This document shows positions 1-16,129 of a DNA stretch of 16,129 bases, one piece after another. How positions within the stretch are numbered: the stretch's first letter is position 1; the number at the start of each line of letters is the position of its first letter. A program made the translations under genes and the position numbers. The notes beneath the pieces are model-generated. The model was not told the DNA's origin. It saw nothing but the letters and a program-made list of their open reading frames with translations, and ran no database searches. Location: IMG/VR virus record IMGVR_UViG_2563367001_000002; one strand, 5' to 3'. Source of the stretch: a virus. Taxonomy: Duplodnaviria > Heunggongvirae > Uroviricota > Caudoviricetes.

Positions 1-2
1 GC

Positions 3-1913
3 GTGGAGGTGGACAAGGTCGCTGAAGCCTTCGGGAAGCTGACCACAGACCCGACGTCGGGGCTGACGGCGATGGCACGCCAGTTCCATAACGTGACGGC
101 GGAGCAGATTGCGTATGTTGCTCAGTTGCAGCGTTCCGGCGATGAAGCCGGGGCATTGCAGGCGGCGAACGAGGCCGCAACGAAAGGGTTTGATGACCAG
201 ACCCGCCGCCTGAAAGAGAACATGGGCACGCTGGAGACCTGGGCAGACAGGACTGCGCGGGCATTCAAATCCATGTGGGATGCGGTGCTGGATATTGGTC
301 GTCCTGATACCGCGCAGGAGATGCTGATTAAGGCAGAGGCTGCGTTTAAGAAAGCAGACGACATCTGGAATCTGCGCAAGGATGATTATTTTGTTAACGA
401 TGAAGCGCGGGCGCGTTACTGGGATGACCGTGAAAAGGCCCGTCTTGCGCTTGAAGCCGCCCGAAAGAAGGCTGAGCAGCAGACTCAACAGGACAAAAAT
501 GCGCAGCAGCAGAGCGATACCGAAGCGTCACGGCTGAAATATACCGAAGAGGCGCAGAAGGCTTACGAACGGCTGCAGACGCCGCTGGAGAAATATACCG
601 CCCGTCAGGAAGAACTGAACAAGGCACTGAAAGACGGGAAAATCCTGCAGGCGGATTACAACACGCTGATGGCGGCGGCGAAAAAGGATTATGAAGCGAC
701 GCTGAAAAAGCCGAAACAGTCCGGCGTGAAGGTGTCTGCGGGCGATCGTCAGGAAGACAGTGCTCATGCTGCTCTGCTGACGCTTCAGGCAGAACTCCGG
801 ACGCTGGAGAAGCATGCCGGAGCAAATGAGAAAATCAGCCAGCAGCGCCGGGATTTGTGGAAGGCGGAGAGTCAGTTCGCGGTACTGGAGGAGGCGGCGC
901 AACGTCGCCAGCTGTCTGCACAGGAGAAATCCCTGCTGGCGCATAAAGATGAGACGCTGGAGTACAAACGCCAGCTGGCTGCGCTTGGCGACAAGGTTAC
1001 GTATCAGGAGCGCCTGAACGCGCTGGCGCAGCAGGCGGATAAATTCGCACAGCAGCAACGGGCAAAACGGGCCGCCATTGATGCGAAAAGCCGGGGGCTG
1101 ACTGACCGGCAGGCAGAACGGGAAGCCACGGAACAGCGCCTGAAGGAACAGTATGGCGATAATCCGCTGGCGCTGAATAACGTCATGTCAGAGCAGAAAA
1201 AGACCTGGGCGGCTGAAGACCAGCTTCGCGGGAACTGGATGGCAGGCCTGAAGTCCGGCTGGAGTGAGTGGGAAGAGAGCGCCACGGACAGTATGTCGCA
1301 GGTAAAAAGTGCAGCCACGCAGACCTTTGATGGTATTGCACAGAATATGGCGGCGATGCTGACCGGCAGTGAGCAGAACTGGCGCAGCTTCACCCGTTCC
1401 GTGCTGTCCATGATGACAGAAATTCTGCTTAAGCAGGCAATGGTGGGGATTGTCGGGAGTATCGGCAGCGCCATTGGCGGGGCTGTTGGTGGCGGCGCAT
1501 CCGCGTCAGGCGGTACAGCCATTCAGGCCGCTGCGGCGAAATTCCATTTTGCAACCGGAGGATTTACGGGAACCGGCGGCAAATATGAGCCAGCGGGGAT
1601 TGTTCACCGTGGTGAGTTTGTCTTCACGAAGGAGGCAACCAGCCGGATTGGCGTGGGGAATCTTTACCGGCTGATGCGCGGCTATGCCACCGGCGGTTAT
1701 GTCGGTACACCGGGCAGCATGGCAGACAGCCGGTCGCAGGCGTCCGGGACGTTTGAGCAGAATAACCATGTGGTGATTAACAACGACGGCACGAACGGGC
1801 AGATAGGTCCGGCCGCTCTGAAGGCGGTGTATGACATGGCCCGCAAGGGTGCCCGTGATGAAATTCAGACACAGATGCGTGATGGTGGCCTGTTCTCCGG
1901 AGGTGGACGATGA
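3..1913 (+). CDS. H: Tail tape measure protein (lambda gpH-like), C-terminal 636 aa; 5' end outside window
   Basis: ORF open from the window edge. Charged coiled-coil-like region, then a Gly-rich segment and a C-terminus ending ...MRDGGLFSGGGR, consistent with my recollection of lambda gpH. Sits immediately upstream of M-L-K-I-J. Stop overlaps the M start (ATGA at 1910-1913). Confidence 0.9.
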   Translation: MEVDKVAEAFGKLTTDPTSGLTAMARQFHNVTAEQIAYVAQLQRSGDEAGALQAANEAATKGFDDQTRRLKENMGTLETWADRTARAFKSMWDAVLDIGRPDTAQEMLIKAEAAFKKADDIWNLRKDDYFVNDEARARYWDDREKARLALEAARKKAEQQTQQDKNAQQQSDTEASRLKYTEEAQKAYERLQTPLEKYTARQEELNKALKDGKILQADYNTLMAAAKKDYEATLKKPKQSGVKVSAGDRQEDSAHAALLTLQAELRTLEKHAGANEKISQQRRDLWKAESQFAVLEEAAQRRQLSAQEKSLLAHKDETLEYKRQLAALGDKVTYQERLNALAQQADKFAQQQRAKRAAIDAKSRGLTDRQAEREATEQRLKEQYGDNPLALNNVMSEQKKTWAAEDQLRGNWMAGLKSGWSEWEESATDSMSQVKSAATQTFDGIAQNMAAMLTGSEQNWRSFTRSVLSMMTEILLKQAMVGIVGSIGSAIGGAVGGGASASGGTAIQAAAAKFHFATGGFTGTGGKYEPAGIVHRGEFVFTKEATSRIGVGNLYRLMRGYATGGYVGTPGSMADSRSQASGTFEQNNHVVINNDGTNGQIGPAALKAVYDMARKGARDEIQTQMRDGGLFSGGGR

Positions 1914-2239
1914 AGACCTTCCGCTGGAAAGTGAAACCCGGTATGGATGTGACATCGGCTCCTTCCGTCAGGGAGGTGCGCTTTGGTGATGGCTATTCCC
2001 AGCGTGCGCCTGCCGGGCTGAACGCTGACCTGAAAACGTACAGCGTGACGCTGTCTGTCTCCCGTGAGGAGGCCACGGCGCTGGAGTCGTTTCTGGCTGA
2101 GCACGGGGGCTGGAAGGCCTTTCTGTGGACGCCGCCTTATGGTTACAGGCAGATAAAGGTGACCTGCGCAAAATGGTCGTCGCAGGTCAGTATGTTGCGT
2201 GTTGAGTTCAGCGCAGAGTTTAAACAGGTGGTGAACTGA
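1910..2239 (+). CDS. M: Minor tail protein M (lambda gpM-like), 109 aa
   Basis: 109-aa ORF, the same length as lambda M, beginning MKTFRWKVKPGMDV... Translationally coupled to H upstream (ATGA) and L downstream (TGATG). Conserved gene order. Confidence 0.9.
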   Translation: MKTFRWKVKPGMDVTSAPSVREVRFGDGYSQRAPAGLNADLKTYSVTLSVSREEATALESFLAEHGGWKAFLWTPPYGYRQIKVTCAKWSSQVSMLRVEFSAEFKQVVN

Positions 2240-2937
2240 TGCAGGATATCCGGCAGGAAACACTGAATGAATGCACCCGTGCGGAGCAGTCGGCCAGCGT
2301 GGTGCTCTGGGAAATCGATCTGACAGAGGTTGGTGGAGAACGTTATTTTTTCTGTAATGAGCAGAACGAAAAAGGTGAGCCGGTCACCTGGCAGGGGCGA
2401 CAGTATCAGCCGTATCCCATTCAGGGGAGCGGTTTTGAACTGAATGGCAAAGGCACCAGTACGCGCCCCACGCTGACGGTTTCTAACCTGTACGGTATGG
2501 TCACCGGGATGGCGGAAGATCTGCAGAGTCTGGTCGGCGGAACGGTGGTCCGGCGTAAGGTTTACGCCCGTTTTCTGGATGCGGTGAACTTCGTCAACGG
2601 AAACAGTTATGCCGATCCGGAGCAGGAGGTGATCAGCCGCTGGCGCATTGAGCAGTGCAGCGAACTGAGCGCGGTGAGTGCCTCCTTTGTACTGTCCACG
2701 CCGACGGAAACGGATGGCGCTGTTTTTCCGGGACGTATCATGCTGGCCAACACCTGCACCTGGACCTATCGCGGTGACGAGTGCGGTTATAGCGGTCCGG
2801 CTGTCGCGGATGAATATGACCAGCCAACGTCCGATATCACGAAGGATAAATGCAGCAAATGCCTGAGCGGTTGTAAGTTCCGCAATAACGTCGGCAACTT
2901 TGGCGGCTTCCTTTCCATTAACAAACTTTCGCAGTAA
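2239..2937 (+). CDS. L: Minor tail protein L (lambda gpL-like), 232 aa, Cys-rich C-terminus
   Basis: 232-aa ORF, the same length as lambda L. C-terminal cysteine cluster (CTWTYRGDECGY...CSKCLSGCKF) as in the gpL family. Conserved position. Confidence 0.9.
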   Translation: MQDIRQETLNECTRAEQSASVVLWEIDLTEVGGERYFFCNEQNEKGEPVTWQGRQYQPYPIQGSGFELNGKGTSTRPTLTVSNLYGMVTGMAEDLQSLVGGTVVRRKVYARFLDAVNFVNGNSYADPEQEVISRWRIEQCSELSAVSASFVLSTPTETDGAVFPGRIMLANTCTWTYRGDECGYSGPAVADEYDQPTSDITKDKCSKCLSGCKFRNNVGNFGGFLSINKLSQ

Positions 2938-2941
2938 TCCC

Positions 2942-3685
2942 ATGACACAGACAGAATCAGCGATTCTGGCGCACGCCCGGCGATGTGCGCCAGCGGAGTC
3001 GTGTGGCTTCGTGGTGAGAACGCCGAAGGGGGAAAGATATTTTCCCTGCGTGAATATCTCCGGTGAGCCGGAGGCGTATTTCCGGATGTCGCCGGAGGAC
3101 TGGCTGCGGGCAGAAATGCAGGGTGAGATTGTGGCGCTGGTCCACAGCCACCCCGGTGGTCTGCCCTGGCTGAGTGAGGCTGACAGGCGGCTGCAGGTGC
3201 AGAGCGATTTGCCGTGGTGGCTGGTCTGCCGGGGTGAGATTCATAAATTCCGCTGTGTGCCGCATCTTACCGGGCGGCGCTTTGAGCACGGGGTGACGGA
3301 CTGTTACACGCTGTTCCGGGATGCTTATCATCTGGCGGGGATTGAGATGCCGGATTTTCATCGCGGGGATGACTGGTGGCGTCACGGTCAGAATCTCTAT
3401 CTGGATAATCTGGAGGCCACAGGGCTGTATCAGGTGCCGTTGTCATCAGCACAACCGGGCGATGTGCTGCTGTGCTGTTTTGGTTCATCGGTGCCGAATC
3501 ATGCCGCCATTTACTGTGGTGATGGCGAGCTGCTGCACCATATTCCTGAACAACTGAGCAAACGAGAGAGGTATACCGACAAATGGCAGCGACGCACACA
3601 CTCCCTCTGGCGTCACCGGGCATGGCGCGCATCTGCCTTTACGGGGATTTACAACGATTTGGCCGCCGCATCGACCTTCGTGTGA
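2942..3685 (+). CDS. K: Tail tip assembly protein K (lambda gpK-like; MPN/JAMM-type and NlpC/P60-type domains)
   Basis: ORF in frame 2900..3685. I chose the ATG at 2942 (MTQTESAILAHARR...) because that N-terminus is the conserved one for this family. The lambda reference annotation would start at the internal ATG at 3086 (MSPEDW...), and the ORF track offers 2900, which overlaps L. HSHPGG is a JAMM-like motif; a Cys/His-containing C-terminal half is NlpC/P60-like. The 3' end overlaps I by about 100 nt, as in lambda. Confidence 0.85.
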   Translation: MTQTESAILAHARRCAPAESCGFVVRTPKGERYFPCVNISGEPEAYFRMSPEDWLRAEMQGEIVALVHSHPGGLPWLSEADRRLQVQSDLPWWLVCRGEIHKFRCVPHLTGRRFEHGVTDCYTLFRDAYHLAGIEMPDFHRGDDWWRHGQNLYLDNLEATGLYQVPLSSAQPGDVLLCCFGSSVPNHAAIYCGDGELLHHIPEQLSKRERYTDKWQRRTHSLWRHRAWRASAFTGIYNDLAAASTFV

Positions 3686-4254
3686 AAACGGGGGCTGAAG
3701 CCATCCGGGCGCTGGCCACACAGCTCCCGGCGTTTCGTCAGAAACTGAGCGACGGCTGGTATCAGGTACGGATTGCCGGGCGGGACGTCAGCACGTCCGG
3801 ATTGACGGCGCAGTTACATGAGGTTCTGCCTGACGGCGCTGTGATTCATATTGTTCCCAGAGTCGCCGGGGCCAAGTCAGGGGGCGTATTCCAGATTGTT
3901 CTGGGGGCTACCGCCATTGCCGGATCATTCTTTACTGCCGGAGCCACCCTTGCAGCATGGGGGGCAGCCATTGGGGCCGGTGGTATGACCGGTATCCTGT
4001 TTTCTCTCGGTGCCAGTATGGTACTTGGTGGTGTGGCGCAGATGCTGGCACCGAAAGCTAGAACTCCCCGTACACAGACAACGGATAACGGTAAGCAGAA
4101 CACCTATTTCTCCTCACTGGATAACATGGTTGCCCAGGGCAATGTTCTGCCTGTTCTGTACGGTGAAATGCGCGTGGGGTCGCGGGTGGCTTCTCAGGAG
4201 ATCAGCACGGCAGACGAGGGGGACGGTGGTCAGGTTGTGGTGATTGGTCGTTGA
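3583..4254 (+). CDS. I: Tail tip assembly protein I (lambda gpI-like), 223 aa
   Basis: 223-aa ORF, the same length as lambda I, beginning MAATHTLPLASPGMARICLYGDLQRFGRR... with a Gly/Ala-rich hydrophobic C-terminal half. Overlaps the K 3' end in another frame. Confidence 0.9.
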   Translation: MAATHTLPLASPGMARICLYGDLQRFGRRIDLRVKTGAEAIRALATQLPAFRQKLSDGWYQVRIAGRDVSTSGLTAQLHEVLPDGAVIHIVPRVAGAKSGGVFQIVLGATAIAGSFFTAGATLAAWGAAIGAGGMTGILFSLGASMVLGGVAQMLAPKARTPRTQTTDNGKQNTYFSSLDNMVAQGNVLPVLYGEMRVGSRVASQEISTADEGDGGQVVVIGR

Positions 4255-4274
4255 TGAAAAACGTTTTATGTGAA

Positions 4275-4300
4275 ACCGCCTCAGGGCGGTTTTGTCGTTT
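4275..4300 (+). terminator. Short I-J intergenic hairpin with U-rich tail (possible attenuator)
   Basis: ACCGCC-tcag-GGCGGT (6-bp stem, 4-nt loop) followed by TTTTGTCGTTT, sitting between the I stop (4254) and the J start (4315). Weak stem, so low confidence. Confidence 0.3.
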
Positions 4301-4314
4301 CTGGAGCGTGAGGA

Positions 4315-7300
4315 ATGGGTAAAGGCAGCAGTAAGGGGCATACCCCGCGCGAAGCGAAGGACAACCTGAAATCATCCCAGATGCTGAGCGTGATAGACGC
4401 CATCAGTGAAGGGCCGATTGAAGGTCCGGTGGACGGATTAAAAAGTGTGCTGCTGAACAGTACGCCAGTGCTGGACAGTGAGGGGAATACCAATATCTCC
4501 GGTGTCACGGTGGTTTTCCGGGCAGGTGAGCAGGAGCAGACACCGCCGGAGGGATTTGAATCCTCCGGCTCCGAGACGGTGCTGGGTACGGAAGTGAAGT
4601 ACGACACGCCGATTACCCGGACCATCACGTCTGCAAACATCGACCGTCTGCGCTTTACCTTCGGTGTGCAGGCACTGGTGGAAACCACCTCAAAGGGGGA
4701 CAGGAATCCATCGGAAGTCCGCCTGCTGGTTCAGATACAACGTAACGGTGGCTGGGTGACGGAAAAAGACATCACCATTAAGGGTAAAACCACCTCGCAG
4801 TATCTGGCCTCAGTGGTGGTGGATAACCTGCCGCCGCGCCCGTTTAATATCCGGATGCGCAGGATGACGCCGGACAGCACCACAGACCAGCTGCAGAACA
4901 AAACGCTCTGGTCGTCATACACCGAAATCATCGATGTGAAACAGTGCTACCCGAACACGGCACTGGTCGGCGTGCAGGTGGACTCGGAGCAGTTCGGCAG
5001 CCAGCAGGTGAGCCGTAATTATCATCTGCGCGGGCGTATTCTGCAGGTGCCGTCGAACTATAACCCGCAGACGCGGCAATACAGCGGTATCTGGGACGGG
5101 ACGTTTAAACCGGCATACAGCAACAACATGGCCTGGTGTCTGTGGGATATGCTGACCCATCCGCGCTACGGCATGGGGAAGCGTCTCGGTGCGGCGGATG
5201 TGGACAAATGGGCGCTGTATGTCATCGGCCAGAATTGCGACCAGTCGGTGCCGGATGGCTTTGGTGGCACGGAGCCGCGCATCACCTGTAATGCCTGGCT
5301 GACCACGCAGCGCAAGGCGTGGGATGTGCTCAGTGATTTCTGCTCGGCGATGCGCTGTATGCCGGTATGGAACGGGCAGACGCTGACGTTCGTGCAGGAC
5401 CGGCCATCGGATAAGGTGTGGACCTATAACCGTAGTAATGTGGTGATGCCGGATGATGGCGCGCCGTTCCGCTACAGCTTCAGCGCCCTGAAGGACCGTC
5501 ATAATGCCGTTGAGGTGAACTGGATTGACCCGAATAACGGCTGGGAGACGGCGACAGAGCTTGTGGAGGACACGCAGGCCATTGCCCGTTACGGTCGTAA
5601 CGTCACGAAGATGGATGCCTTTGGCTGTACCAGCCGGGGGCAGGCACACCGCGCCGGGCTGTGGCTGATTAAAACAGAACTGCTGGAAACGCAGACCGTG
5701 GATTTCAGCGTCGGCGCAGAAGGGCTTCGCCATGTACCGGGTGATGTTATTGAAATCTGCGATGATGACTATGCGGGGATCAGCATTGGCGGGCGCGTGC
5801 TGGCGGTGAACAGCCAGACCCGGACGCTGACGCTCGACCGTGAAATCACGCTGCCATCCTCCGGTACCACGCTGATAAGCCTGGTTGACGGGCAGGGGAG
5901 TCCGGTCAGCGTGGAGGTTCAGTCCGTCACCGACGGCGTGAAGGTGAAAGTGAGTCGGGTTCCTGACGGCGTTGCCGGATACAGCGTGTGGGGGCTGAAG
6001 CTGCCGACGCTGCGCCAGCGCCTGTTCCGCTGTGTGAGTATCCGTGAGAACGACGACGGCACGTATGCCATCACCGCCGTGCAGCATGTACCGGAAAAAG
6101 AGGCCATCGTGGATAACGGGGCGTACTTTGACGGCGACCAGAGCGGCACGGTGAATGGTGTCACGCCGCCAGCGGTGCAGCACCTGACCGCCGAAGTCAC
6201 CGCAGACAGCGGGGAATATCAGGTGCTGGCGCGCTGGGACACGCCGAAGGTGGTGAAGGGCGTGAGCTTCCTGCTCCGTCTGACCGTAACAGCGGATGAC
6301 GGCAGTGAGCGGCTGGTCAGCACGGCCCGGACGACGGAAACCACATACCGCTTCAGGCAACTGGCGCTGGGGAACTACAGGCTGACAGTCCGGGCGGTAA
6401 ATGCGTGGGGGCAGCAGGGCGATCCGGCGTCGGTATCGTTCCGGATTGCCGCACCGGCAGCACCGTCGAGGATTGAGCTGACGCCGGGCTATTTTCAGAT
6501 AACCGCCACGCCGCATCTTGCCGTTTATGACCCGACGGTACAGTTTGAGTTCTGGTTCTCGGAAAAGCGGATTACCGATATCAGGCAGGTTGAAACCACA
6601 GCCCGCTATCTTGGTACGGCGCTGTACTGGATAGCCGCCAGTATCAATATCAAACCGGGCCATGATTATTACTTTTATATCCGCAGTGTGAACACCGTTG
6701 GCAAATCGGCATTCGTGGAGGCCGTCGGTCGGGCGAGCGATGATGCGGAAGGTTACCTGGATTTTTTCAAAGGCAAGATAACCGAATCCCATCTCGGCAA
6801 GGAGCTGCTGGAAAAAGTCGAGCTGACGGAGGATAACGCCAGCAGACTGGAGGAGTTTTCGAAAGAGTGGAAGGACGCCAACGATAAGTGGAATGCCATG
6901 TGGGGCGTCAAAATTGAGCAGACCAAAGACGGCAAACATTATGTCGCGGGGCTTGGCCTCAGCATGGAGGACACGGAGGAAGGCAAACTGAGCCAGTTCC
7001 TGGTTGCCGCTAACCGTATCGCATTTATTGACCCGGCAAACGGGAATGAAACGCCGATGTTTGTGGCGCAGGGCAATCAGATATTCATGAACGAAGTGTT
7101 CCTGAAATATCTGACGGCTCCCACCATTACCAGCGGCGGTAATCCTCCGGCATTTTCCCTGACACCGGACGGGCGGCTGACGGCGAAAAATGCCGATATC
7201 AGCGGTAACGTGAATGCGAACTCCGGGACGCTCAACAACGTCACGATTAACGAGAACTGCCGGGTTCTGGGAAAACTGTCCGCGAACCAGATTGAAGGCG

Positions 7301-7710
7301 ATCTCGTTAAAACAGTGGGCAAAGCTTTCCCCCGTGACTCCCGAGCACCGGAGCGGTGGCCATCAGGGACCATTACCGTCAGGGTTTATGACGATCAGCC
7401 GTTTGACCGGCAAATTGTTATTCCGGCGGTGGCATTCAGTGGCGCTAAGCATGAGAGAGAGCATACTGATATTTACTCCTCATGCCGTCTGATAGTGCGG
7501 AAAAACGGTGCTGAAATTTATAACCGTACCGCGCTGGATAATACGCTGATTTACAGTGGCGTTATTGATATGCCTGCCGGTCACGGTCACATGACACTGG
7601 AGTTTTCGGTGTCAGCATGGCTGGTAAATGGCTGGTATCCCACAGCAAGTATCAGCGATTTGCTGGTTGTTGTGATGAAGAAAGCCACTGCAGGCATCAC
7701 GATTAGCTGA
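4315..7710 (+). CDS. J: Host specificity protein J (tail tip / central fibre, lambda gpJ-like), 1131 aa
   Basis: 1131-aa ORF (lambda J is 1132 aa) beginning [20 protein letters not shown]... Long collinear similarity to lambda J as I recall it. The last ~150 aa differ from lambda (receptor-binding region). SD-like GGAG upstream. Confidence 0.92.
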
Positions 7711-7729
7711 ATTTTATAACCCAGATACG

Positions 7730-7753
7730 GGCACCAGAAATGGTGCCTTTTTT
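7730..7753 (+). terminator. Rho-independent terminator downstream of J
   Basis: GGCACCA-gaaa-TGGTGCC (7-bp perfect stem, GNRA-type tetraloop) immediately followed by TTTTTT; 20 nt after the J stop. Confidence 0.8.
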
Positions 7754-7777
7754 ATTGCAGAAAAGCGAGAGGTAATT

Positions 7778-8377
7778 ATGCGTAAATTATGTGCTGTTAT
7801 TCTGTCCGCAGTAGTCTGGCTGGTTGCCGCTGGTACGCCAGCGAGCGCAGCAGAGCATCAGTCCACACTAAGCGCCGGGTATCTTCAGACCCATACTGAT
7901 ATGCCAGGCAGTGATGACCTGAAGGGCATTAACGTGAAATACCGTTATGAATTTACGGACACGCTGGGGCTGGTGACGTCATTCAGTTATGCCAATGCCA
8001 AAGATGAGCAAAGAACGCATTACAGCGATACCCGCTGGCATGAAGATTCAGTGCGTAACCGCTGGTTCAGCATGATGGCGGGGCCATCTGTACGCGTGAA
8101 TGAATGGTTCAGTGCTTATGCGATGGCAGGTGTGGCTTACAGCCGTGTTTCGACGTTCTCCGGGGATTATCTCCGCGTAACTGACAACAAGGGGAAAACG
8201 CACGATGTGCTGACCGGAAGTGATGACGATCGCCACAGCAACACGTCTCTGGCGTGGGGAGCTGGCGTGCAGTTTAACCCGACCGAATCCGTGGCCATTG
8301 ATATTGCTTATGAAGGCTCCGGCAGTGGCGACTGGCGCACTGACGGTTTCATCGTGGGTGTCGGTTATAAGTTCTGA
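7778..8377 (+). CDS. lom: Lom outer membrane protein (Ail/Lom/PagC family beta-barrel), 199 aa
   Basis: Signal peptide (MRKLCAVILSAVVWLVAAGTPASA), alternating aromatic beta-strand pattern, C-terminal ...GVGYKF. Position right after J as in lambda. Own SD (GAGAGG) and flanking terminators. Confidence 0.9.
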   Translation: MRKLCAVILSAVVWLVAAGTPASAAEHQSTLSAGYLQTHTDMPGSDDLKGINVKYRYEFTDTLGLVTSFSYANAKDEQRTHYSDTRWHEDSVRNRWFSMMAGPSVRVNEWFSAYAMAGVAYSRVSTFSGDYLRVTDNKGKTHDVLTGSDDDRHSNTSLAWGAGVQFNPTESVAIDIAYEGSGSGDWRTDGFIVGVGYKF

Positions 8378-8403
8378 TTAGCCAGGTAACACAGTGTTAT
8401 GAC

Positions 8404-8431
8404 AGCCCGCCGGTTCAGGCGGGCTTTTTTG
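8404..8431 (+). terminator. Rho-independent terminator downstream of lom
   Basis: AGCCCGCC-ggttca-GGCGGGCT (8-bp stem) followed by TTTTTT; 27 nt after the lom stop. Confidence 0.8.
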
Positions 8432-8441
8432 TGGAGTGGAT

Positions 8442-10820
8442 ATGGCAGCAGTAAAAATCTCAGGTGTGCTGAAAGATGGTGCGGGAAAACCAATACAGAA
8501 CTGCACTATTCAACTGAAGGCAAAGCGTAACAGCACCACGGTACTGGTGAACACGGTGGCTTCTGAAAATCCGGATGAAGCCGGACGTTACAGCATGGAT
8601 GTTGAGTATGGCCAGTACAGCGTCACCCTGCTGGTTGAAGGTTTTCCGCCTTCACATGCCGGGACCATTACCGTCTATGAAGGCTCCAGACCAGGTACGC
8701 TGAATGATTTTCTCGGTGCCATGACGGAAGATGATGTCATGCCGGAGGCATTGCGTCGTTTTGAGGAAATGGTGGAAGAAGCGGCACGCAACGCTGAAGC
8801 CGCCTCTCAGAGCGCAGCGGCGGCAAAGAAATCCGAAACTGCAGCGGCATCATCGAAGAACGCGGCGAAAACCTCAGAAACGAATGCAGCTAATAGTGCA
8901 CAGGCGGCAGCGACCTCAAAGACTGCATCGGCAAACTCCGCGACAGCAGCCAAAAAATCAGAAACCAACGCGAAAAATAGCGAGACAGCCGCAAAGACGA
9001 GCGAAACCAACGCAAAGTCCAGCCAGACGGCAGCGAAAACCAGCGAAACGAATGCCAAAGCCAGTGAAACTGCGGCAAAAAACAGCCAGGTTGCAGCAGC
9101 CCAAATCGAGAGCGCGGCAGCCGGTTCTGCGACTTCAGCAGCTGGATCAGCAACTGCTGCGGCTAACAGCCAGAAAGCTGCGAAGACGAGTGAAACTAAC
9201 GCAAAGTTCAGCCAGACGGCAGCGAAGACCAGCGAAACGAATGCCAAAGCCAGCGAAACTGCGGCGAAAAACAGTCAGGATGCAGCAGCCCAAAGCGAGA
9301 GTGCTGCAGCTGGTTCTGCAAGCGCGGCGGCTGCTTCTGCCACTGCATCAGCCAACAGTCAAAAAGCAGCAAAAACCAGTGAAACCAATGCAAAGACAAG
9401 CGAGACTGCAGCGGCGAACTCGGCGAAAGCATCGGCAGCAAGCCAGACAGCAGCTAAAGCAAGTGAAGACGCAGCCAGAGAGTATGCAAGTCAGGCAGCA
9501 GAGCCGTATAAATATGTCTTACAGCCGCTGCCTGATGTGTGGATACCATTTAACGATTCGCTGGATATGATTACGGGCTTTTCGCCATCATATAAAAAAA
9601 TTGTTATTGGTGACGATGAAATAACGATGCCTGGCGACAAGATTGTTAAGTTTAAACGTGCATCGAAAGCAACCTATATTAACAAATCTGGTGTGCTGAC
9701 AGAGGCTGCCATTGACGAGCCACGATTTGAACGTGATGGCCTGCTTATTGAGGGGCAAAGAACAAACTACATGCTCAATTCGGAAAGCCCTGCAAGTTGG
9801 GGGCGATCATCAAATATGGATGTGCCCGAAACAGGGACGGATAATTTTGGTTTTACCTATGGAAAGTTTGTCTGCAACGATTCTCTGATTGGGCAAACCT
9901 CAGCCATTAATATGGCATCAATTGCTGCAACAAAGTCAGTTGATGTCTCAGGCGATAATAAACACGTGACAACCTCATGTCGTTTTAAAACAGAACTGCA
10001 GGTAAGGTTGCGTATCCGGTTTGATAAATATGACGGTAGCACAACAACTTTTCTTGGTGATGCGTATATTGATACACAAACGCTTGAAATTAATATGACA
10101 GGCGGTGCTGCCTCAAGAATTACAGCGAGAGTCAGAAAGGACGAAGCTACCGGATGGATTTTTGCAGAGGCAACAATTCAGGCAATTGATGGGGAGTTAA
10201 AAATAGGCTCTCAGATACAGTATTCTCCTGGGCAGGGTGGGGCAACAGTATCTGGTGACTATATTTATCTTGCCACCCCACAAGTAGAGAATGGGCCGTG
10301 TGTATCATCATTTATTATTTCAGGAGGCAGCGCAACGACAAGAGCCAGTGATTTGGTTAGTATCCCCACCAGAAATAATCTTTATAAGTTACCATTTACT
10401 TTTTTACTTGAGATTCATAAAAACTGGGATATTGCACCAAACGCCGCACCCCGCGTGTGGGATATAGCAGCAGCCAATACCGGGCAATCAGCAATTGCAG
10501 CAATCAACAGAGGTAGTGGTAAGTTATATATGAGTCTGTCAAACCCTTCAGGCTCGTATGTTAATAGCGCAGCGACAGATGTATTTGCAGAGAAAACCAC
10601 ATTTGGATGTATTGCAAAAGCTGATGGTCACTTTCATGTGGTGACAAATGGTAAAGCGGTTAATGAAGTTTATTGTGAATATAATGGCGTGACCGCTGAT
10701 AAAAATATCCGATTTGGAGGGCAGACGAATACTGGAGAACGACATCTGTTTGGCCATATTCGCAATTTCCGCATATGGCATAAAGAATTAAATGACAGGC
10801 AATTAAAAGAGGTCGTATGA
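8442..10820 (+). CDS. stf: Side tail fibre protein (Stf-like N-terminus, Ala/Ser/Thr-rich repeat shaft, LamG/ConA-like C-terminal domain)
   Basis: N-terminus MAVKISGVLKDGAGKPIQNCTIQLKAKRNSTT... matches the lambda Stf N-terminus as I recall it. I chose the ATG at 8442 with GGAG 5-8 nt upstream; the ORF track's 8436 is a GTG two codons earlier. The central part has KTSETNAK-type repeats. The C-terminus ends ...IRFGGQTNTGERHLFGHIRNFRIWHKELNDRQLKEVV, the typical end of a LamG (concanavalin-like lectin) domain. Confidence 0.8.
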   Translation: MAAVKISGVLKDGAGKPIQNCTIQLKAKRNSTTVLVNTVASENPDEAGRYSMDVEYGQYSVTLLVEGFPPSHAGTITVYEGSRPGTLNDFLGAMTEDDVMPEALRRFEEMVEEAARNAEAASQSAAAAKKSETAAASSKNAAKTSETNAANSAQAAATSKTASANSATAAKKSETNAKNSETAAKTSETNAKSSQTAAKTSETNAKASETAAKNSQVAAAQIESAAAGSATSAAGSATAAANSQKAAKTSETNAKFSQTAAKTSETNAKASETAAKNSQDAAAQSESAAAGSASAAAASATASANSQKAAKTSETNAKTSETAAANSAKASAASQTAAKASEDAAREYASQAAEPYKYVLQPLPDVWIPFNDSLDMITGFSPSYKKIVIGDDEITMPGDKIVKFKRASKATYINKSGVLTEAAIDEPRFERDGLLIEGQRTNYMLNSESPASWGRSSNMDVPETGTDNFGFTYGKFVCNDSLIGQTSAINMASIAATKSVDVSGDNKHVTTSCRFKTELQVRLRIRFDKYDGSTTTFLGDAYIDTQTLEINMTGGAASRITARVRKDEATGWIFAEATIQAIDGELKIGSQIQYSPGQGGATVSGDYIYLATPQVENGPCVSSFIISGGSATTRASDLVSIPTRNNLYKLPFTFLLEIHKNWDIAPNAAPRVWDIAAANTGQSAIAAINRGSGKLYMSLSNPSGSYVNSAATDVFAEKTTFGCIAKADGHFHVVTNGKAVNEVYCEYNGVTADKNIRFGGQTNTGERHLFGHIRNFRIWHKELNDRQLKEVV
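8991..9413 (+). repeat. In-frame 189-bp (63-aa) tandem repeat inside stf, about 2.2 copies, roughly 90% identical
   Basis: Unit A 8991-9179 (gcaaagacgagcgaaaccaacgcaaag...) recurs as unit B 9180-9368 (gcgaagacgagtgaaactaacgcaaag...), with a partial third copy to about 9413. Protein-level repeat ...AKTSETNAK(S/F)SQTAAKTSETNAKASETAAKNSQ...ANSQKA. Confidence 0.85.
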
Positions 10821-11095
10821 AAGATTTAACTTTGAAGTTTCATGACAAACTGCAGTTTAAGGCCTTCCTGTCATCTCTTGGCTGGGCGGAAGATGAAGAC
10901 CTCCAGAATAAACTGTTAGTTGATGAAATTGGTTTCACCTACACAGAAACAGGGGTAACAGAAGAGGGAGAACCTGTCTGTATCCGGAATGATGGTTATT
11001 TTGTCAACATTCGCATTCTTGATGACTTGTTTGATGTTTCTGTATTCTCTGATTATGTCGTGGAGCTGGAAACACCGCTTCGGGAATGGAGCTGA
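10817..11095 (+). CDS. Hypothetical acidic protein, 92 aa, translationally coupled to stf
   Basis: ATG overlaps the stf stop (ATGA, 10817-10820). Good SD (AAGAGG) 6 nt upstream. No TM segment, net acidic. I recognise no family. About 41% GC. Confidence 0.55.
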   Translation: MKDLTLKFHDKLQFKAFLSSLGWAEDEDLQNKLLVDEIGFTYTETGVTEEGEPVCIRNDGYFVNIRILDDLFDVSVFSDYVVELETPLREWS

Positions 11096-11107
11096 AAGGA
11101 GGAAATA

Positions 11108-11401
11108 ATGGATATAAGCCCCTTACTTCATGCACTTTGTGCTGTGGCTGCGCAGATACTGGTTGGTCTTTTTACCGGAAACTGGGCTTACGGAGCGATA
11201 GCCGGTTGTACGTTCTTCATTGCGCGTGAACATACCCAGGCAGAATATCGCTGGATTGAAATGTTCGGGCATGGCAAGCGAATGAATATGCCGTGGTGGG
11301 GCGGTTTTGATCCGCGAGCTTGGGATGTGGCAAGCCTGATGGATTTTGCTGTGCCGGTGGTGGCGTGTCTGCTGGTCTGGCTGTTGGTTAATCGTGGGTG
11401 A
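11108..11401 (+). CDS. Hypothetical small membrane protein, 97 aa, two predicted TM helices
   Basis: Strong SD (AAGGAGG) 5-6 nt before the ATG. Hydrophobic stretches LLHALCAVAAQILVGLFTGNWAYGAIAGCTFFI and FAVPVVACLLVWLLV. Family not recognised. Confidence 0.55.
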   Translation: MDISPLLHALCAVAAQILVGLFTGNWAYGAIAGCTFFIAREHTQAEYRWIEMFGHGKRMNMPWWGGFDPRAWDVASLMDFAVPVVACLLVWLLVNRG

Positions 11402-11554: not shown

Positions 11555-11604
11555 CCGCAGCACGTCTTAAGCAAGAACGTGCTGCGGTTGGATGCTATTT
11601 TTTC
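11555..11604. terminator. Hairpin between the convergent Tfa remnant and methyltransferase gene (candidate bidirectional terminator)
   Basis: Perfect 11-bp stem CCGCAGCACGT / ACGTGCTGCGG (11555-11565 and 11577-11587) with an 11-nt loop; a T-run (TATTTTTT) lies 9 nt downstream on the + strand. No U-tract on the minus-strand side. Confidence 0.45.
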
Positions 11605-12263
11605 CCTGAAGCGGAAAACATTACTACAGTACCTTGAACCTTGGTTTTAACATTCTCGAAATGCTCTGAGAGTATATGTGTTAAGCCTTCTTCGGAATCT
11701 TTTGTGTTTGAAAAGATGCCTTTCTGATTGTAAATGCGCATCAGTTTTTGACCGAAGCTATTGTGCACAACGCCGTCACCAAGAATTGTGGCTCCGTATA
11801 GAGTTCCATCGTCAGTTAAGGCCTGCGCCGCATTGCGTATTACACAGCTTTTTGTAGATATATTTCCAGGCAGGCAGTGAAGAAGGTAAAACATGGAAAT
11901 GGAATCAAATTGACCATGTAACGCCGCGGGATAAGGATCAAAAACATCATGGCTAATTTTATGTTTAATTTTTGATTCCCCAGCCCTTGTAGATGCCGCG
12001 TTCAGGCTAGCTTCGTTCAAATCCATTAAAGATATCAGACTACTCTCAGGTACGTGAGTAAGGTAAAACCCAGTTCCAACACCAATATCCAGATGGTTGT
12101 TACCTAAATGTTCCAGAAAGTGTGGAAGAAGGTGTTCCTTTGTAGGACATCCCCATGCAAGCCGATTTGATACTCCCAAAACCCACCAGTCATAAAGCTT
12201 TAGGGTAAGTGGTGTGTAAATTTTAGCCCCATCATCTGTGTTTTTTTTCATTAATTTCACCAT
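11595..12263 (-). CDS. ybcY: Class I SAM-dependent methyltransferase (ybcY-like), 222 aa
   Basis: Motif I LDIGVGTG (GxGxG), acidic residue in LMDLNE about 20 aa later, motif II-like FDSISMFYLLHCLP. Sits between two Tfa remnants exactly like ybcY in the K-12 DLP12 tfaD-ybcY-tfaX arrangement; the symbol is assigned from that context. A second in-frame ATG at codon 5 (CDS 11595..12251) has a better SD (GGTGA). Low GC. Confidence 0.7.
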   Translation of the reverse strand: MVKLMKKNTDDGAKIYTPLTLKLYDWWVLGVSNRLAWGCPTKEHLLPHFLEHLGNNHLDIGVGTGFYLTHVPESSLISLMDLNEASLNAASTRAGESKIKHKISHDVFDPYPAALHGQFDSISMFYLLHCLPGNISTKSCVIRNAAQALTDDGTLYGATILGDGVVHNSFGQKLMRIYNQKGIFSNTKDSEEGLTHILSEHFENVKTKVQGTVVMFSASGKK

Positions 12264-12319
12264 GTTATAGTTTTATTTGTGAATTAAATCAATTATGGCG
12301 ATGAATTACAAGGGGTTAA

Positions 12320-12618
12320 ATGCTGCCGCAGCATAGCGATATTGAAATAGCCTGGTATGCTTCGATACAGCAGGAGCCGAATGGCTGGAAGACCGTCACC
12401 ACACAGTTCTACATCCAGGAATTCAGTGAGTATATTGCGCCACTGCAGGATGCTGGGAAATCGCAACGGAGGAAGAAAGATCGTTGCTGGAGGCATGGAA
12501 TAAATATCGGGTATTGTTGAATCGTGTTGATACATCAGTAGCTCTGGGTATGAAGCTGTTTGTAACTCATGTTACAGTAACAACCATTACTATCTCGAAG
12601 GTGCAAAATGTATATTGA
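12320..12618 (+). pseudogene. tfa: Tail fibre assembly protein pseudogene (tfaX-like), frameshifted
   Basis: One frame gives ...[10 protein letters not shown] and, after a shift of frame near 12455, ...[30 protein letters not shown]... These are both parts of the conserved Tfa C-terminal domain, split across frames. The C-terminus diverges from the Tfa consensus after VDTS. Confidence 0.6.
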
Positions 12619-12746
12619 TTTGATATTTTATAAATTTACTTCGAATCTGGCACGTCAACTTTTGATTAAAGTAATATCAGTTTTCGGCGAAAAAAGGACC
12701 GTGTATATGAGACGATTTCATACAAGAATAACAAAAATATGAATAT

Positions 12747-12780
12747 GCTCCCAATGCAATATATGTTTTGCATTGGGAGC
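12747..12780 (-). terminator. Rho-independent terminator for the minus-strand peptidase gene
   Basis: Perfect 12-bp stem GCTCCCAATGCA / TGCATTGGGAGC with a 10-nt loop, 22 nt downstream of the peptidase stop. On the minus-strand transcript it is followed by AUAUUCAUAUUUUUGUUAUU. Confidence 0.65.
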
Positions 12781-12801
12781 AAATAGCGGAATATTTTGAA
12801 A

Positions 12802-14286
12802 TTATTGTATTTCTGCTTCAGAATTTCCTGGGCAGTATATATTTTCTATTTTTTGTGGAGTGATCAGGTGATGTACAACTGCTTTATCTACACATAAATT
12901 AACTCCGGTGAGAGCTAATGTATGCCCATCACCATTTATTGTTAGTAACGGGCTGGAAAATTTCTCTGCCATCTTACGGGCATTAATCCAGGGCGTTGTT
13001 GGGTCGTATTTGTGTGCTACAAACAGTAAACCAGAGGGCAGAACAGTATTTTTCAGGCGAGTTTTGTTCAGGTCGCTATGTATTGGCCATAATTCACAAA
13101 AATCAGGTGAATCGGAACGTCCATTGTCAAAGTTAATGGCCGGGAAGGCATTCGCAAGAGCGTCTTTTCGGGATTTTCGCTCTTCTGGTGTTAATTGCTC
13201 ATCCCCCTGATCTACACAGAGGATTACCCCCGAAGCATCGCTTGACTCTTCTGAGGCTATCGGAGCACTGAGCGCAGTTTCAATTTCATTACTGACAATC
13301 CCCTGAGAGAACTGGCGTATGGCAGTTGCAAGGGTTGGCCATGATGAACGCCATAGCAGAAGGTCTGTTGTTAATGATATGAGTTCATCTGAAGATATAT
13401 TTTCTCCCTTACTGTCTAATAAAGGTTTGTGATGTAATTTTGATAATAGCTCATGGAACTGAGTTATTGCCTTATCTCTGTCTGAAGAAAGCGGGCAACT
13501 TTTTGTACGCGCACACCAGGATGCAAAGCGATCAAACGTTTCCTGATAACTCTGTGCCTGTTTGAGTTGCCATGTGAAGTTGTCCTCCAGGTCATCGATA
13601 TCGACGACTCCATCAAGAACGATAGATCTTACGTTGTAGGGAAAACGTTCTGCATATAAGGCTGCAATTTGAGTTCCATACGAATACGCCACGGCTGTCA
13701 GTTGTTTATCCCCCAAGGCTTGCCTAATACGATCAATATCGTATACAGCCTCGTTAGAGCCGATATGGCGAATGACTTCGGCTCCGGTATTATGGATACA
13801 GGCATTAATTTTATTTAATACTTGTTGCTTTTCGGTTATGTTTTCCTGAGTCTCTGTATCTGATTGCCGGCAGTTTATTGTCGGAGTGGACTGTCCGACG
13901 CCTCGAGGATCAAATCCAATAATATCCCATGACTCACGAAGATTTGTGACTGGCCAGTCAAAGTTAATATAAGGATTTATGCCTGGTAACCCGGGACCAC
14001 CACTTATTATCAGGATACTTCCTTTATGCTTGCTTTTTGCCGGCAATTTTGTCAACGCTAGTTTGACTTGTGATTTTTTTTCATAAGAAGCATCTCCGCC
14101 TGTGTCTGTATATTTTAATGGAACAGACAAATAACCACATAGTAAGTCAGGAGACGGTTTTTCCTCACCAAACCAGTGGTTGAATTGACTGGCCATACAG
14201 GATTGCCACTGTATCTGCTGGGCAGATACGGTTACTGGTAGAAGTAACGTTAAAACAACTTTGAAATGAGTAATTATTTTTCGCAT
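12802..14286 (-). CDS. Signal-peptide-bearing (exported) alpha/beta-hydrolase peptidase, S33 / TAP-like (tripeptidyl or prolyl aminopeptidase family), 494 aa
   Basis: N-terminal signal peptide (MRKIITHFKVVLTLLLPVTVSA|QQ). GGPG oxyanion motif (ILIISGGPGLPG), GFDPRGVGQS, nucleophile elbow AYSYGT (GxSYG-type), C-terminal Asp/His region (INGDGHTLAL). Low GC. Confidence 0.75.
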   Translation of the reverse strand: MRKIITHFKVVLTLLLPVTVSAQQIQWQSCMASQFNHWFGEEKPSPDLLCGYLSVPLKYTDTGGDASYEKKSQVKLALTKLPAKSKHKGSILIISGGPGLPGINPYINFDWPVTNLRESWDIIGFDPRGVGQSTPTINCRQSDTETQENITEKQQVLNKINACIHNTGAEVIRHIGSNEAVYDIDRIRQALGDKQLTAVAYSYGTQIAALYAERFPYNVRSIVLDGVVDIDDLEDNFTWQLKQAQSYQETFDRFASWCARTKSCPLSSDRDKAITQFHELLSKLHHKPLLDSKGENISSDELISLTTDLLLWRSSWPTLATAIRQFSQGIVSNEIETALSAPIASEESSDASGVILCVDQGDEQLTPEERKSRKDALANAFPAINFDNGRSDSPDFCELWPIHSDLNKTRLKNTVLPSGLLFVAHKYDPTTPWINARKMAEKFSSPLLTINGDGHTLALTGVNLCVDKAVVHHLITPQKIENIYCPGNSEAEIQ

Positions 14287-14424
14287 TGTGTCTCTGAATA
14301 TCGGAATAAAGATAAGATTTGAATATATTGAGGTCTTGTGTTGCGGTAAGAGATTACACGTTATGACATAGGTTAAATGCTTACAAAATTAGTGGATATT
14401 GTCTACTTGTAACTGTAAACAAAT

Positions 14425-14453
14425 TCCCCGGGGTTATACAATACCACCGGGGA
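14425..14453 (-). terminator. Candidate terminator for ompT
   Basis: TCCCCGG ... CCGGGGA inverted repeat (7-bp stem, 15-nt loop) about 20 nt downstream of the ompT stop, followed on the minus-strand transcript by AUUUGUUUAC. Confidence 0.5.
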
Positions 14454-14472
14454 GAAAATCTGGTTAACTTCG

Positions 14473-15426
14473 TTAAAAGGTGTACTTAAGACCAGCAGTA
14501 GTGATGAAGTTATAGTTTTCTATGCCTGCACCATTTTTGCTGTAGTCTGAAGTGTTATCATTGTGATCATAAAGTGAAGTATTACCTTTTTTATTCGTAA
14601 CCCGATTCCATGCGCCTTCAACATAAACTTTTGCGTTAGGTGTTACGTAATAACCTGCATTGACTGCAACAGAATAGTAATTTTGGTCTTTGACTTTACT
14701 GCGATAAGTGATTCTTTTTCCTGGGTCATAGTGCTCATCGTTATCAGATGCTTCCACCCAGCCGCTGTATTTAAATGTGCCACCTAGCTCAAAATCTTCA
14801 TAACGATAACTTCCAGTCAAGCCAATGTAGGGCATTTTAAAACGTTGTTTGTAGCCGATTGCTCTTTCTCCATTCGGGAAGGAGCCGATATCATCTCTGA
14901 ATCCCTCCTCAGAACTGTAGATATAGGAACCACCTCTGGCTGTAAAGCTATAACGGCTTTCCTGATATCCGGCCATGAGTCCCAGGCGGTAATTGGGTTC
15001 GTTGAGGAGCCAGCCTTTGATATTCAGATCAAATTCGTTGGCATAATTGAGTTGTGTATCAGGGTGCCTACTTTCATCTGTCCAGGTTCCGGGGTTACTG
15101 GAATCCATCCAGTCCTGATCGACCATATTGCCACCTCGGCTGCCGAGAGTAGTCCAGCCCGCAGCCCCAATAGATATCTGGGGCATCAAATCCCAATTAA
15201 TTGCACCTTTAATAATTGCAGCGTTATTGAATTTCCAGTCAAGTTGACTGACTTTTCGGCCTCCTTCTTCGGCTAGATAAACACGCTCTTTTGTTTTTCC
15301 GCTCAGAGTTCCAAGACTAATGTCCGCATTTATGTTGTCAGGAGTAAACGATAAAGTCTCGGTAGAAGCAAAAGAGCTGATCGCAATAGGGGTTGTCAGG
15401 ACTATTCCCAGAAGTTTCGCCCGCAT
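14473..15426 (-). CDS. ompT: Outer membrane protease OmpT (omptin, peptidase family A26), 317 aa
   Basis: 317-aa ORF with signal peptide MRAKLLGIVLTTPIAISSFA and C-terminal ...TTAGLKYTF. Essentially collinear with E. coli K-12 OmpT as I recall it. GGAG SD 8 nt upstream of the ATG. Confidence 0.93.
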   Translation of the reverse strand: MRAKLLGIVLTTPIAISSFASTETLSFTPDNINADISLGTLSGKTKERVYLAEEGGRKVSQLDWKFNNAAIIKGAINWDLMPQISIGAAGWTTLGSRGGNMVDQDWMDSSNPGTWTDESRHPDTQLNYANEFDLNIKGWLLNEPNYRLGLMAGYQESRYSFTARGGSYIYSSEEGFRDDIGSFPNGERAIGYKQRFKMPYIGLTGSYRYEDFELGGTFKYSGWVEASDNDEHYDPGKRITYRSKVKDQNYYSVAVNAGYYVTPNAKVYVEGAWNRVTNKKGNTSLYDHNDNTSDYSKNGAGIENYNFITTAGLKYTF

Positions 15427-15700
15427 AAAAGTTCTCCATTCAATCGTTTTAATGATTGAATATGTATTTTTTATATCTAACTTAATGAGTCAATTACATA
15501 TTGCTCCACTGTTTATATTTTGTTTAGTATTGAATGATTATCACAATGCGCTATCTGTTTTTGGTTTAATTATCTGTTATTGTTTTATGTTGCGGTTTTA
15601 CTGTGTGGTTTTTTATGCTTTTGTGGTGTTTTTATCTATTTAAGCGCCATGCCTTTAGAGGCATATAAGCGAAAATAGCATGAGGTTTATCCTCAATTGC
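15427..15700 (-). promoter_or_regulatory. AT-rich ompT upstream/promoter region
   Basis: Very AT-rich, T-tract-rich non-coding DNA directly upstream of ompT. Contains a 7-bp inverted repeat TTCAATC-N8-GATTGAA at 15437-15458. No promoter elements mapped with confidence. Confidence 0.4.
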
Positions 15701-15848
15701 TATGTTTTTTGGTACAAAAAAGAGGGACAAAACTGAGACACATAAGGCCTCACAATGGCTTGCAAGGCTTTACATGTTTTGAGGTAGTGGGACGTGTGAG
15801 CGCAGAGATGGCGCGGTAAGTTGTTGACTTAAAATGTCGTTCTAGGAA

Positions 15849-15893
15849 CTTCTAAGTCGTGGGCCGCAGGTTCGAATCCTGCAGGGCGCGCCA
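15849..15893 (+). tRNA. Partial tRNA-Arg (argU-type) 3' segment: anticodon loop through CCA, with no functional 5' half (attachment-site core)
   Basis: cttctaagtcgtgggccgcaggttcgaatcctgcagggcgcgcca matches the 3' ~45 nt of E. coli argU (UCU anticodon; T-arm GCAGG-TTCGAAT-CCTGC; acceptor 3' strand and CCA). The required acceptor 5' strand GCGCCCT is absent; upstream there is only a degenerate tRNA-like stretch starting at 15811 (gcgcggtaag...). Confidence 0.65.
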
Positions 15894-15900
15894 TTAAAAT

Positions 15901-16129
15901 TCAATCAGTTACGCCTTCTTTATTTCTTCTATAATTCCAGAGTGGGACATTATCACCAAAAATGTCGTCTATTTTCCTCGCGTGCTCAGTCAAATGATTA
16001 GGAGCAAGGTGAGCATATCTACGAACCATTTCTCTGGACTCCCATCCGCCCATTTCCTGAAGCACTGATAATGGGACGCCTGACTGAATCAGCCAGCTTG
16101 CCCAGGTGTGTCTGAGGTCATGGAAACGG
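15901..16129 (-). CDS. int: Tyrosine-type integrase (P4/DLP12-type), C-terminal 76 codons; 5' end outside window
   Basis: Minus-strand translation: [75 protein letters not shown]. Carries the HxLRHT box and the catalytic-Tyr region RRYAHL of tyrosine recombinases. The stop lies 7 bp from the tRNA fragment's CCA end. Not listed in the ORF track because it is truncated by the window edge. Confidence 0.85.

Follow-up and report, generated by a model that had tools for sequence, protein, structure and literature searches.

Escherichia coli K-12 carries the defective prophage DLP12 at the tRNA-Arg gene argU. The K-12 record annotates DLP12 at 564755-586056, a start that is the exact first core base within argU. 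At its right end, a P arm is followed by the same 45 nt + TT as in the DNA studied here, and the sequence then diverges towards envY. The attR of DLP12 has been described as a 47-bp copy of the argU 3' end (PMC6379469, citing Lindsey et al. 1989), and DLP12 is present in 74% of strains (PMC6379469). The pathogenicity island PAI-IHE3034-argU (559677-609271) carries Iss and ompT (review PMC7545054). For tandem prophages, the accepted origin is two phages with a common attB (PMC8112680).

We analysed a 16,129-nt stretch of viral DNA (IMG/VR virus record IMGVR_UViG_2563367001_000002, Caudoviricetes), the whole of which we call the window. A first-pass annotation had proposed that a prophage ends within 15427-16129 at an att hybrid site, where a second integrase-bearing element begins. 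We put a probability of roughly 0.88 on the window ending in the attR of a DLP12-type (IntD/argU) lambdoid prophage that integrated beside an older, decayed prophage of the same family. In substance this bears out the first-pass interpretation, with the corrections given below. The features of the window are as follows:

1-11401, plus strand: tail module of the left lambdoid prophage (tape-measure C-terminus, M, L, K, I, J, Lom, side tail fibre, small ORFs)
11595-12263, minus strand: class I SAM-dependent methyltransferase (ybcY-type) of the phage b-region (Pfam Methyltransf_12/23)
12802-14286, minus strand: alpha/beta hydrolase with a TAP-like C-terminal domain (Pfam), phage cargo; the 'S33 peptidase' of the first-pass annotation
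14473-15426, minus strand: ompT (omptin protease), the final gene before the phage attachment site (Pfam Omptin)
15427-15848, no strand: attP-derived P arm including the ompT upstream region (attP comparison)
15849-15896, plus strand: att core, the 45-nt argU 3' part (15849-15893) + TTA (four-way alignment)
15901-16129, minus strand: 3' end of a DLP12-type integrase remnant, int' (translation, stop codon, PF00589)

The phage side, the core and the integrase remnant

The tail module, with Ail_Lom and phage_tail_N domains by Pfam, is collinear with an annotated prophage in E. coli AST216. The methyltransferase gene (11595-12263) is also found in phage 2G7b, and a paralogous copy lies in the remnant described below. 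The hydrolase matches Abhydrolase_1 (E = 3e-33) and Abhydrolase_4/TAP-like (E = 2e-14) in Pfam, and the ompT product has a complete Omptin domain (PF01278 positions 1-283/283, E = 2.8e-130). Hydrolase, ompT, attP and int are contiguous in the free phages 2G7b, ev243 and Turner, which are 99.1-99.3% identical to 12700-16129, and 2G7b is collinear with the entire window (95% coverage, 98.1% identity). Because free phages carry both genes, ompT and the hydrolase are phage-borne. They are the terminal cargo of the phage, in agreement with the first-pass annotation.

The slot between the tail-fibre-assembly fragments and ompT (window 12264-14472; locus L007 19376-21180) is a variable cargo space, with the alpha/beta hydrolase in the window, appY in K-12 and none in the remnant. 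In phage Perceval (OV696612), the feature names in this slot point to the sitA/sitD iron/manganese transporter. Further left, window 10817-11401 is without a 1038-bp 'tail fiber domain-containing protein' gene (compare L001 14308-15975), which AST216 and 2G7b have between two small ORFs. The tail-fibre module of the window resembles that of strain IHE3034, while its junction is identical to that of AST216, a combination that is ordinary lambdoid mosaicism.

The P arm is of phage origin. Over the stretches aligned, it is identical to the attP of 2G7b (15649-15848), where it is unrelated to the folD-argU flank, to the attP arm of Turner (15757-15848) and to the attR arm of K-12 DLP12 (15761-15848). 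The whole arm (15427-15848) lies inside the 99.1-99.3% free-phage match, and its identity to the arm upstream of the remnant's ompT is ~88%. Several PhiR phage records match only up to window 15895, and for at least one of them, PhiR30_1, the match ends 4 nt short of the record's end, which suggests that records of this type were linearised at the att site.

The core at 15849-15893, CTTCTAAGTCGTGGGCCGCAGGTTCGAATCCTGCAGGGCGCGCCA, is identical at 45/45 positions to argU nt 33-77, from the first anticodon-loop base to CCA, in the argU copies of E. coli AST216, AVS0756 and K-12. The alignment proposed by the first-pass annotation thus holds. A 40-nt part of the core occurs once in the window and matched in 0/200 shuffles. 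A direct repeat of the argU 3' end (~47 bp) is therefore present, as 45/45 + TTA, at the end of the prophage that lies away from int. Between the ompT start codon, which ends at 15426, and the core there are 422 bp, close to the ~420 bp first estimated.

A four-way alignment across the core compared the window with the attP of the free phage 2G7b, the AST216 attL and the AVS0756 site, which is unoccupied. On the left side of the core, the window is identical to the 2G7b attP, and the AST216 attL to the unoccupied host site. On the right side, the alleles of the window are those of the AVS0756 remnant int', and those of the AST216 attL are those of the phage int. We therefore show that the att site is a chimera, as the hybrid-site proposal had it, because this copy of the core is flanked on one side by a phage attP arm and on the other by the sequence that follows argU in a prophage-free strain. 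Attachment sites attP, attB, attL and attR have a 48-bp block of identity in common. Its leftmost limit is set at 15848, where phage and host first differ, and its rightmost at 15897, where remnant and phage first differ. Since the switch between phage and remnant alleles falls between 15848 and 15897, it lies inside 15849-15896, and strand exchange would be located within this block. The window and attL are, as read from these alignments, the reciprocal chimeras expected of Campbell-type site-specific integration next to the remnant.

The motif GTCGT stands in two copies, at 15836-15840 and 15856-15860, and the downstream copy forms the 3' strand of the anticodon stem in argU. The first-pass annotation took this duplication for a crossover scar. 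We rejected this idea: the upstream copy pre-exists in the free-phage attP and in the K-12 DLP12 attR, both of which already have the two copies. Moreover, tyrosine recombinases are not known to produce duplications.

Right of the core, the remnant int' matches the catalytic domain PF00589 (E = 3.6e-15, profile positions 128-171 of 172), and its translation keeps the HxxR and catalytic Tyr motifs (HDLRH, RRYAH). This 3' end is 75-80% identical to the integrases of P22-like and Sf phages. The C-terminus is frameshifted by an 11-bp deletion after 15942, which swaps the final 16 integrase residues for a different tail. The deleted 11 bp are one unit of a tandem TGGGACAT-ATT repeat (deletion point 15943-15950), and the loss is consistent with replication slippage. 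Because the deletion shifts the frame, the minus-strand reading frame stops at a TGA at 15901-15903, and 7 bp separate it from the core. The stop codon of intact intD corresponds to 15909-15911 and is 15 bp away from the tRNA. The 7-bp distance given in the first-pass annotation was hence correct, but this spacing is a product of the deletion and is not that of intD.

Remnant-type alleles are found in the window at 15897, 15924, 15927, 15930, 15982, 15988, 16018 and 16034, in addition to the 11-bp deletion. From 16085, the window has intD/phage-type alleles, unlike other remnants. The right flank is thus a mosaic and not a pure remnant allele. In AST216 (int' at L001 20471-21100), the intD-type segment extends for ~250 bp from 16085, with one remnant-type site inside, after which int' returns to remnant type as far as the deletion breakpoint. 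The int' at the IHE3034 junction is remnant-type throughout. The simplest account, suggested by this pattern of alleles, is that gene conversion took place later between the two copies of int in the tandem array. Note that the window ends 236 bp into the integrase; it is other genomes that show where int' is truncated and what else the remnant contains.

The junction in complete E. coli genomes

The junction at 15427-16129 is 100% identical in three complete E. coli chromosomes, where int' is a ~590-bp pseudogene without its N-terminus. It is covered over at least 80% of its length in 79 of 5426 complete genomes. The window as a whole was matched at 100% by no complete genome.

AST216 shows both ends of the prophage. 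At the left end are folD, an intact argU (595922-595998) and a complete intD on the minus strand (596014-597177), and a ~60-kb lambdoid prophage lies between argU-intD and the junction. An intact argU and a second integrase at the far left had been anticipated, and both were found ~60 kb to the left in the junction-identical genomes. The early genes of the prophage are DLP12-type (emrE, ybcK, ybcN, ninE, ybcO, rusA, ylcG) and are followed by iss/bor, head and tail genes, a methyltransferase, the alpha/beta hydrolase, ompT and the junction. To the right of the junction are the int' pseudogene, of 592 bp in this strain, a tail-fibre-assembly fragment (tfa'), a second methyltransferase, a second ompT, ybcH and nfrA. 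Gene order in IHE3034 is the same. We infer that the source genome of the window continues as do the three junction-identical genomes.

In the matched genomes, the right-hand remnant is ~3 kb. An element does follow the junction, as the first-pass annotation supposed, but it is a decayed DLP12-type remnant and not a second phage. The second ompT (L001 22422-23375; also L008 8736-9689) lies ~3 kb right of the junction, and the OmpT proteins of the window and of the AST216 remnant are identical at 314/317 aa. A third, degenerate core (41/45; L001 ~23799-23843) ends the remnant's P arm, and the ybcH flank lies beyond. With a P arm of its own and a degenerate core, the remnant is itself an old prophage end of this family. 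The 'chromosomal' ompT thus also marks where such an older prophage ended. In the prophage-free strain AVS0756, an intact argU stands directly before the remnant's int', tfa', methyltransferase, ompT and ybcH. Together with the alleles right of the core, this demonstrates the remnant origin of the right side. The remnant was found in 1117 genomes (5426 complete genomes were searched for the junction). Strain VTB96775v has a complete prophage ending in hydrolase-ompT-core, then envY-ybcH, and no remnant.

In AST216, the major capsid gene of the prophage is interrupted after nt 245 by a ~10.7-kb island (L002 25026-36784) with genes for a tyrosine integrase, a primase, an SSB, a major capsid protein of its own, decoration proteins, a small terminase and Abi. 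The island looks like a capsid-forming PICI satellite. No flanking direct repeats of at least 14 nt were found, and a ~10-bp direct repeat, AGCCGAAGCA, flanks it (BLAST and by eye). The capsid::island junction occurs in 173/5426 complete E. coli genomes.

The mechanism would be as follows. The phage attP consists of a P arm that reaches ompT, the 48-bp core and, within the int 3' end, a P' arm. Int-mediated recombination would combine the tRNA 3' half brought in by the phage with the 5' half of the host gene, and argU is indeed intact at attL, next to intD. The original host 3' half would be displaced ~60 kb to attR, as 15849-15893. Because the host flank was the old remnant, the displaced tRNA half would then be followed by the truncated remnant integrase, and the lysogen has two ompT copies and three argU 3' ends. 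For tyrosine recombinases that integrate into tRNA genes, strand exchange is described in the anticodon loop. By analogy, exchange here probably takes place in CTTCTAA (15849-15855), the 7-nt anticodon loop with which the block begins on its left. The remainder of the block would restore the tRNA, and IHF and Xis presumably participate.

Rival accounts of the junction

The window could instead be a free, episomal or circularly permuted phage, in which case the junction would be a plain attP and the integrase would belong to the same element as the tail genes. The hydrolase-ompT-P arm-core-int order of 2G7b, ev243 and Turner is that of the window, at 99.1-99.3% identity, and the collinearity of 2G7b with the entire window also speaks for such a phage. 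We nevertheless consider this improbable. All five phage records with full coverage are 11-13 bp longer over the stretch, and 2G7b, the one aligned across the indel, has the 11 bp missing from the window. Moreover, at 8/8 SNP sites from 15897 to 16034 the allele is intD-type in 2G7b and Turner and remnant-type in the window, and the three chromosomes that are 100% identical over 15427-16129 have a truncated integrase pseudogene. We give a similarly small chance to homologous recombination between the phage int (or ompT) and its remnant copy, as opposed to Int acting at the core. Phage and remnant do have in common ~590 bp of int at ~95% identity and ~1.4 kb of ompT + P arm, and the mosaic of remnant-type and phage-type segments in int' means that homologous exchange has happened at the junction. 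However, after a crossover inside int the junction should have phage-type sequence directly to the right of its core, and attL should be remnant-type; the reverse is observed. The switch from phage to resident sequence falls inside the 48-bp block, as site-specific recombination predicts, and the mosaic is better explained by gene conversion after integration.

A reading of 15810-15893 as a real, though unusual, tRNA or tRNA-like gene is barely tenable. In its favour, GenBank records of the phages Turner and Kati label the identical sequence as an 84-nt tRNA-Pro, GGCGCG (15810-15815) is able to pair with CGCGCC (15887-15892), the T arm is intact and the Rfam tRNA model matches with E = 0.011. 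However, that match scores 24.8 bits, below the gathering score of 29, and its alignment starts at model position 9, without the acceptor stem and with a 29-nt insertion. ARAGORN made zero tRNA calls in the window and none at the phage loci, yet it detected argU in the control loci. Folding of the 84-nt stretch was no better than shuffles (z = -1.15, versus -2.24 for real argU), and 3 extra bases set the T stem apart from the alternative acceptor stem. The argU 5' half is not present beside the core in the window, and the locus does not form the cloverleaf, with 7-bp acceptor stem, D arm and anticodon arm, of a functional tRNA-Arg (argU) gene. The first-pass annotation was right that there is no functional tRNA at the core. 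An intact or degenerate tRNA at 15799-15893 was likewise ruled out by ARAGORN, Rfam and folding. The 'tRNA-Pro' of Turner and Kati (Turner, L006 4613-4696 = window 15810-15893) consists of the attP core and 39 upstream nt, and this annotation is probably an artefact.

Consequences and relation to known systems

The 422 bp that serve as control region upstream of ompT are also the P arm of attP, an overlap kept from free phages to the DLP12 remnant of K-12. On this overlap one may speculate, as a long shot, that ompT expression is tied to the recombination machinery, in that Int, IHF or Xis bound at the P arm would modulate the ompT promoter. If this were true, ompT would be a conversion gene with an output that depends on prophage state. 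When 15300-16129 was scanned for promoters and terminators, no signal exceeded that of shuffled sequences. A repeat search of the 2G7b attP for Int arm-type sites returned short two-copy matches only, such as AAAATGTCGT at window 15831-15840 and 15959-15968. We make no claim of Int arm sites, because 973 bp should by chance alone contain ~0.5 exact 10-mer pairs.

Viable lambda-like phages thus carry, as their terminal cargo, the gene for the OmpT protease, which is listed among ExPEC virulence factors. Two ompT copies are present in some lineages, including IHE3034, because a new phage landed beside an old remnant. These findings are of use for annotation and for copy-number-aware typing of ompT; the biology itself is not new. 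Our literature searches on 2G7b/ev243 and on ompT-carrying temperate phages found nothing relevant.

The locus shares with K-12 DLP12 its argU attachment site, the duplication of the 45-nt core + TT at the right end, an identical P arm over 15761-15848, an ompT ~422 bp from the core, the integrase family and an int 3' end that abuts the tRNA. It differs in three respects: the left element, as seen in the matched genomes, is a lambdoid prophage of full length with head and tail genes, the alpha/beta hydrolase takes the place of appY, and an integrase remnant, instead of envY, lies beyond the core. The free phages 2G7b (genus Nesevirus), ev243, Turner and PhiR (induced from ECOR strains) are collinear with the window and 95-98% identical to it between the tape-measure gene and the core, and they share the hydrolase, ompT and the attP P arm. 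After the core, however, they have an intact int of their own, whereas the window has the remnant allele with its 11-bp deletion.

A second integration into a regenerated attB, giving head-to-tail elements with a copy of the core between them, is also described for the tandem PPompW prophages of O157:H7 (PMC8112680). In phages with a P22/SfV-type Int, attP overlaps a tRNA 3' end, as it does here. PPompW and the P22/SfV-type phages use other targets (thrW, ompW), and in our case the older partner has decayed to ~3 kb. The ExPEC islands PAI-IHE3034-argU and PAI-S88-argU (PMC7545054) are also close to the locus: IHE3034 has the order prophage, hydrolase-ompT, core, int', tfa', methyltransferase, second ompT and ybcH, and this whole array, with its version of the junction, falls within the published island coordinates, 559677-609271. 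IHE3034 differs in having ~95% identity to the window at 87% coverage, with an int' that is purely remnant-type where that of the window is mosaic. The arrangement is therefore a standard and documented one, of which the attachment site, the mechanism and the island are all already known.
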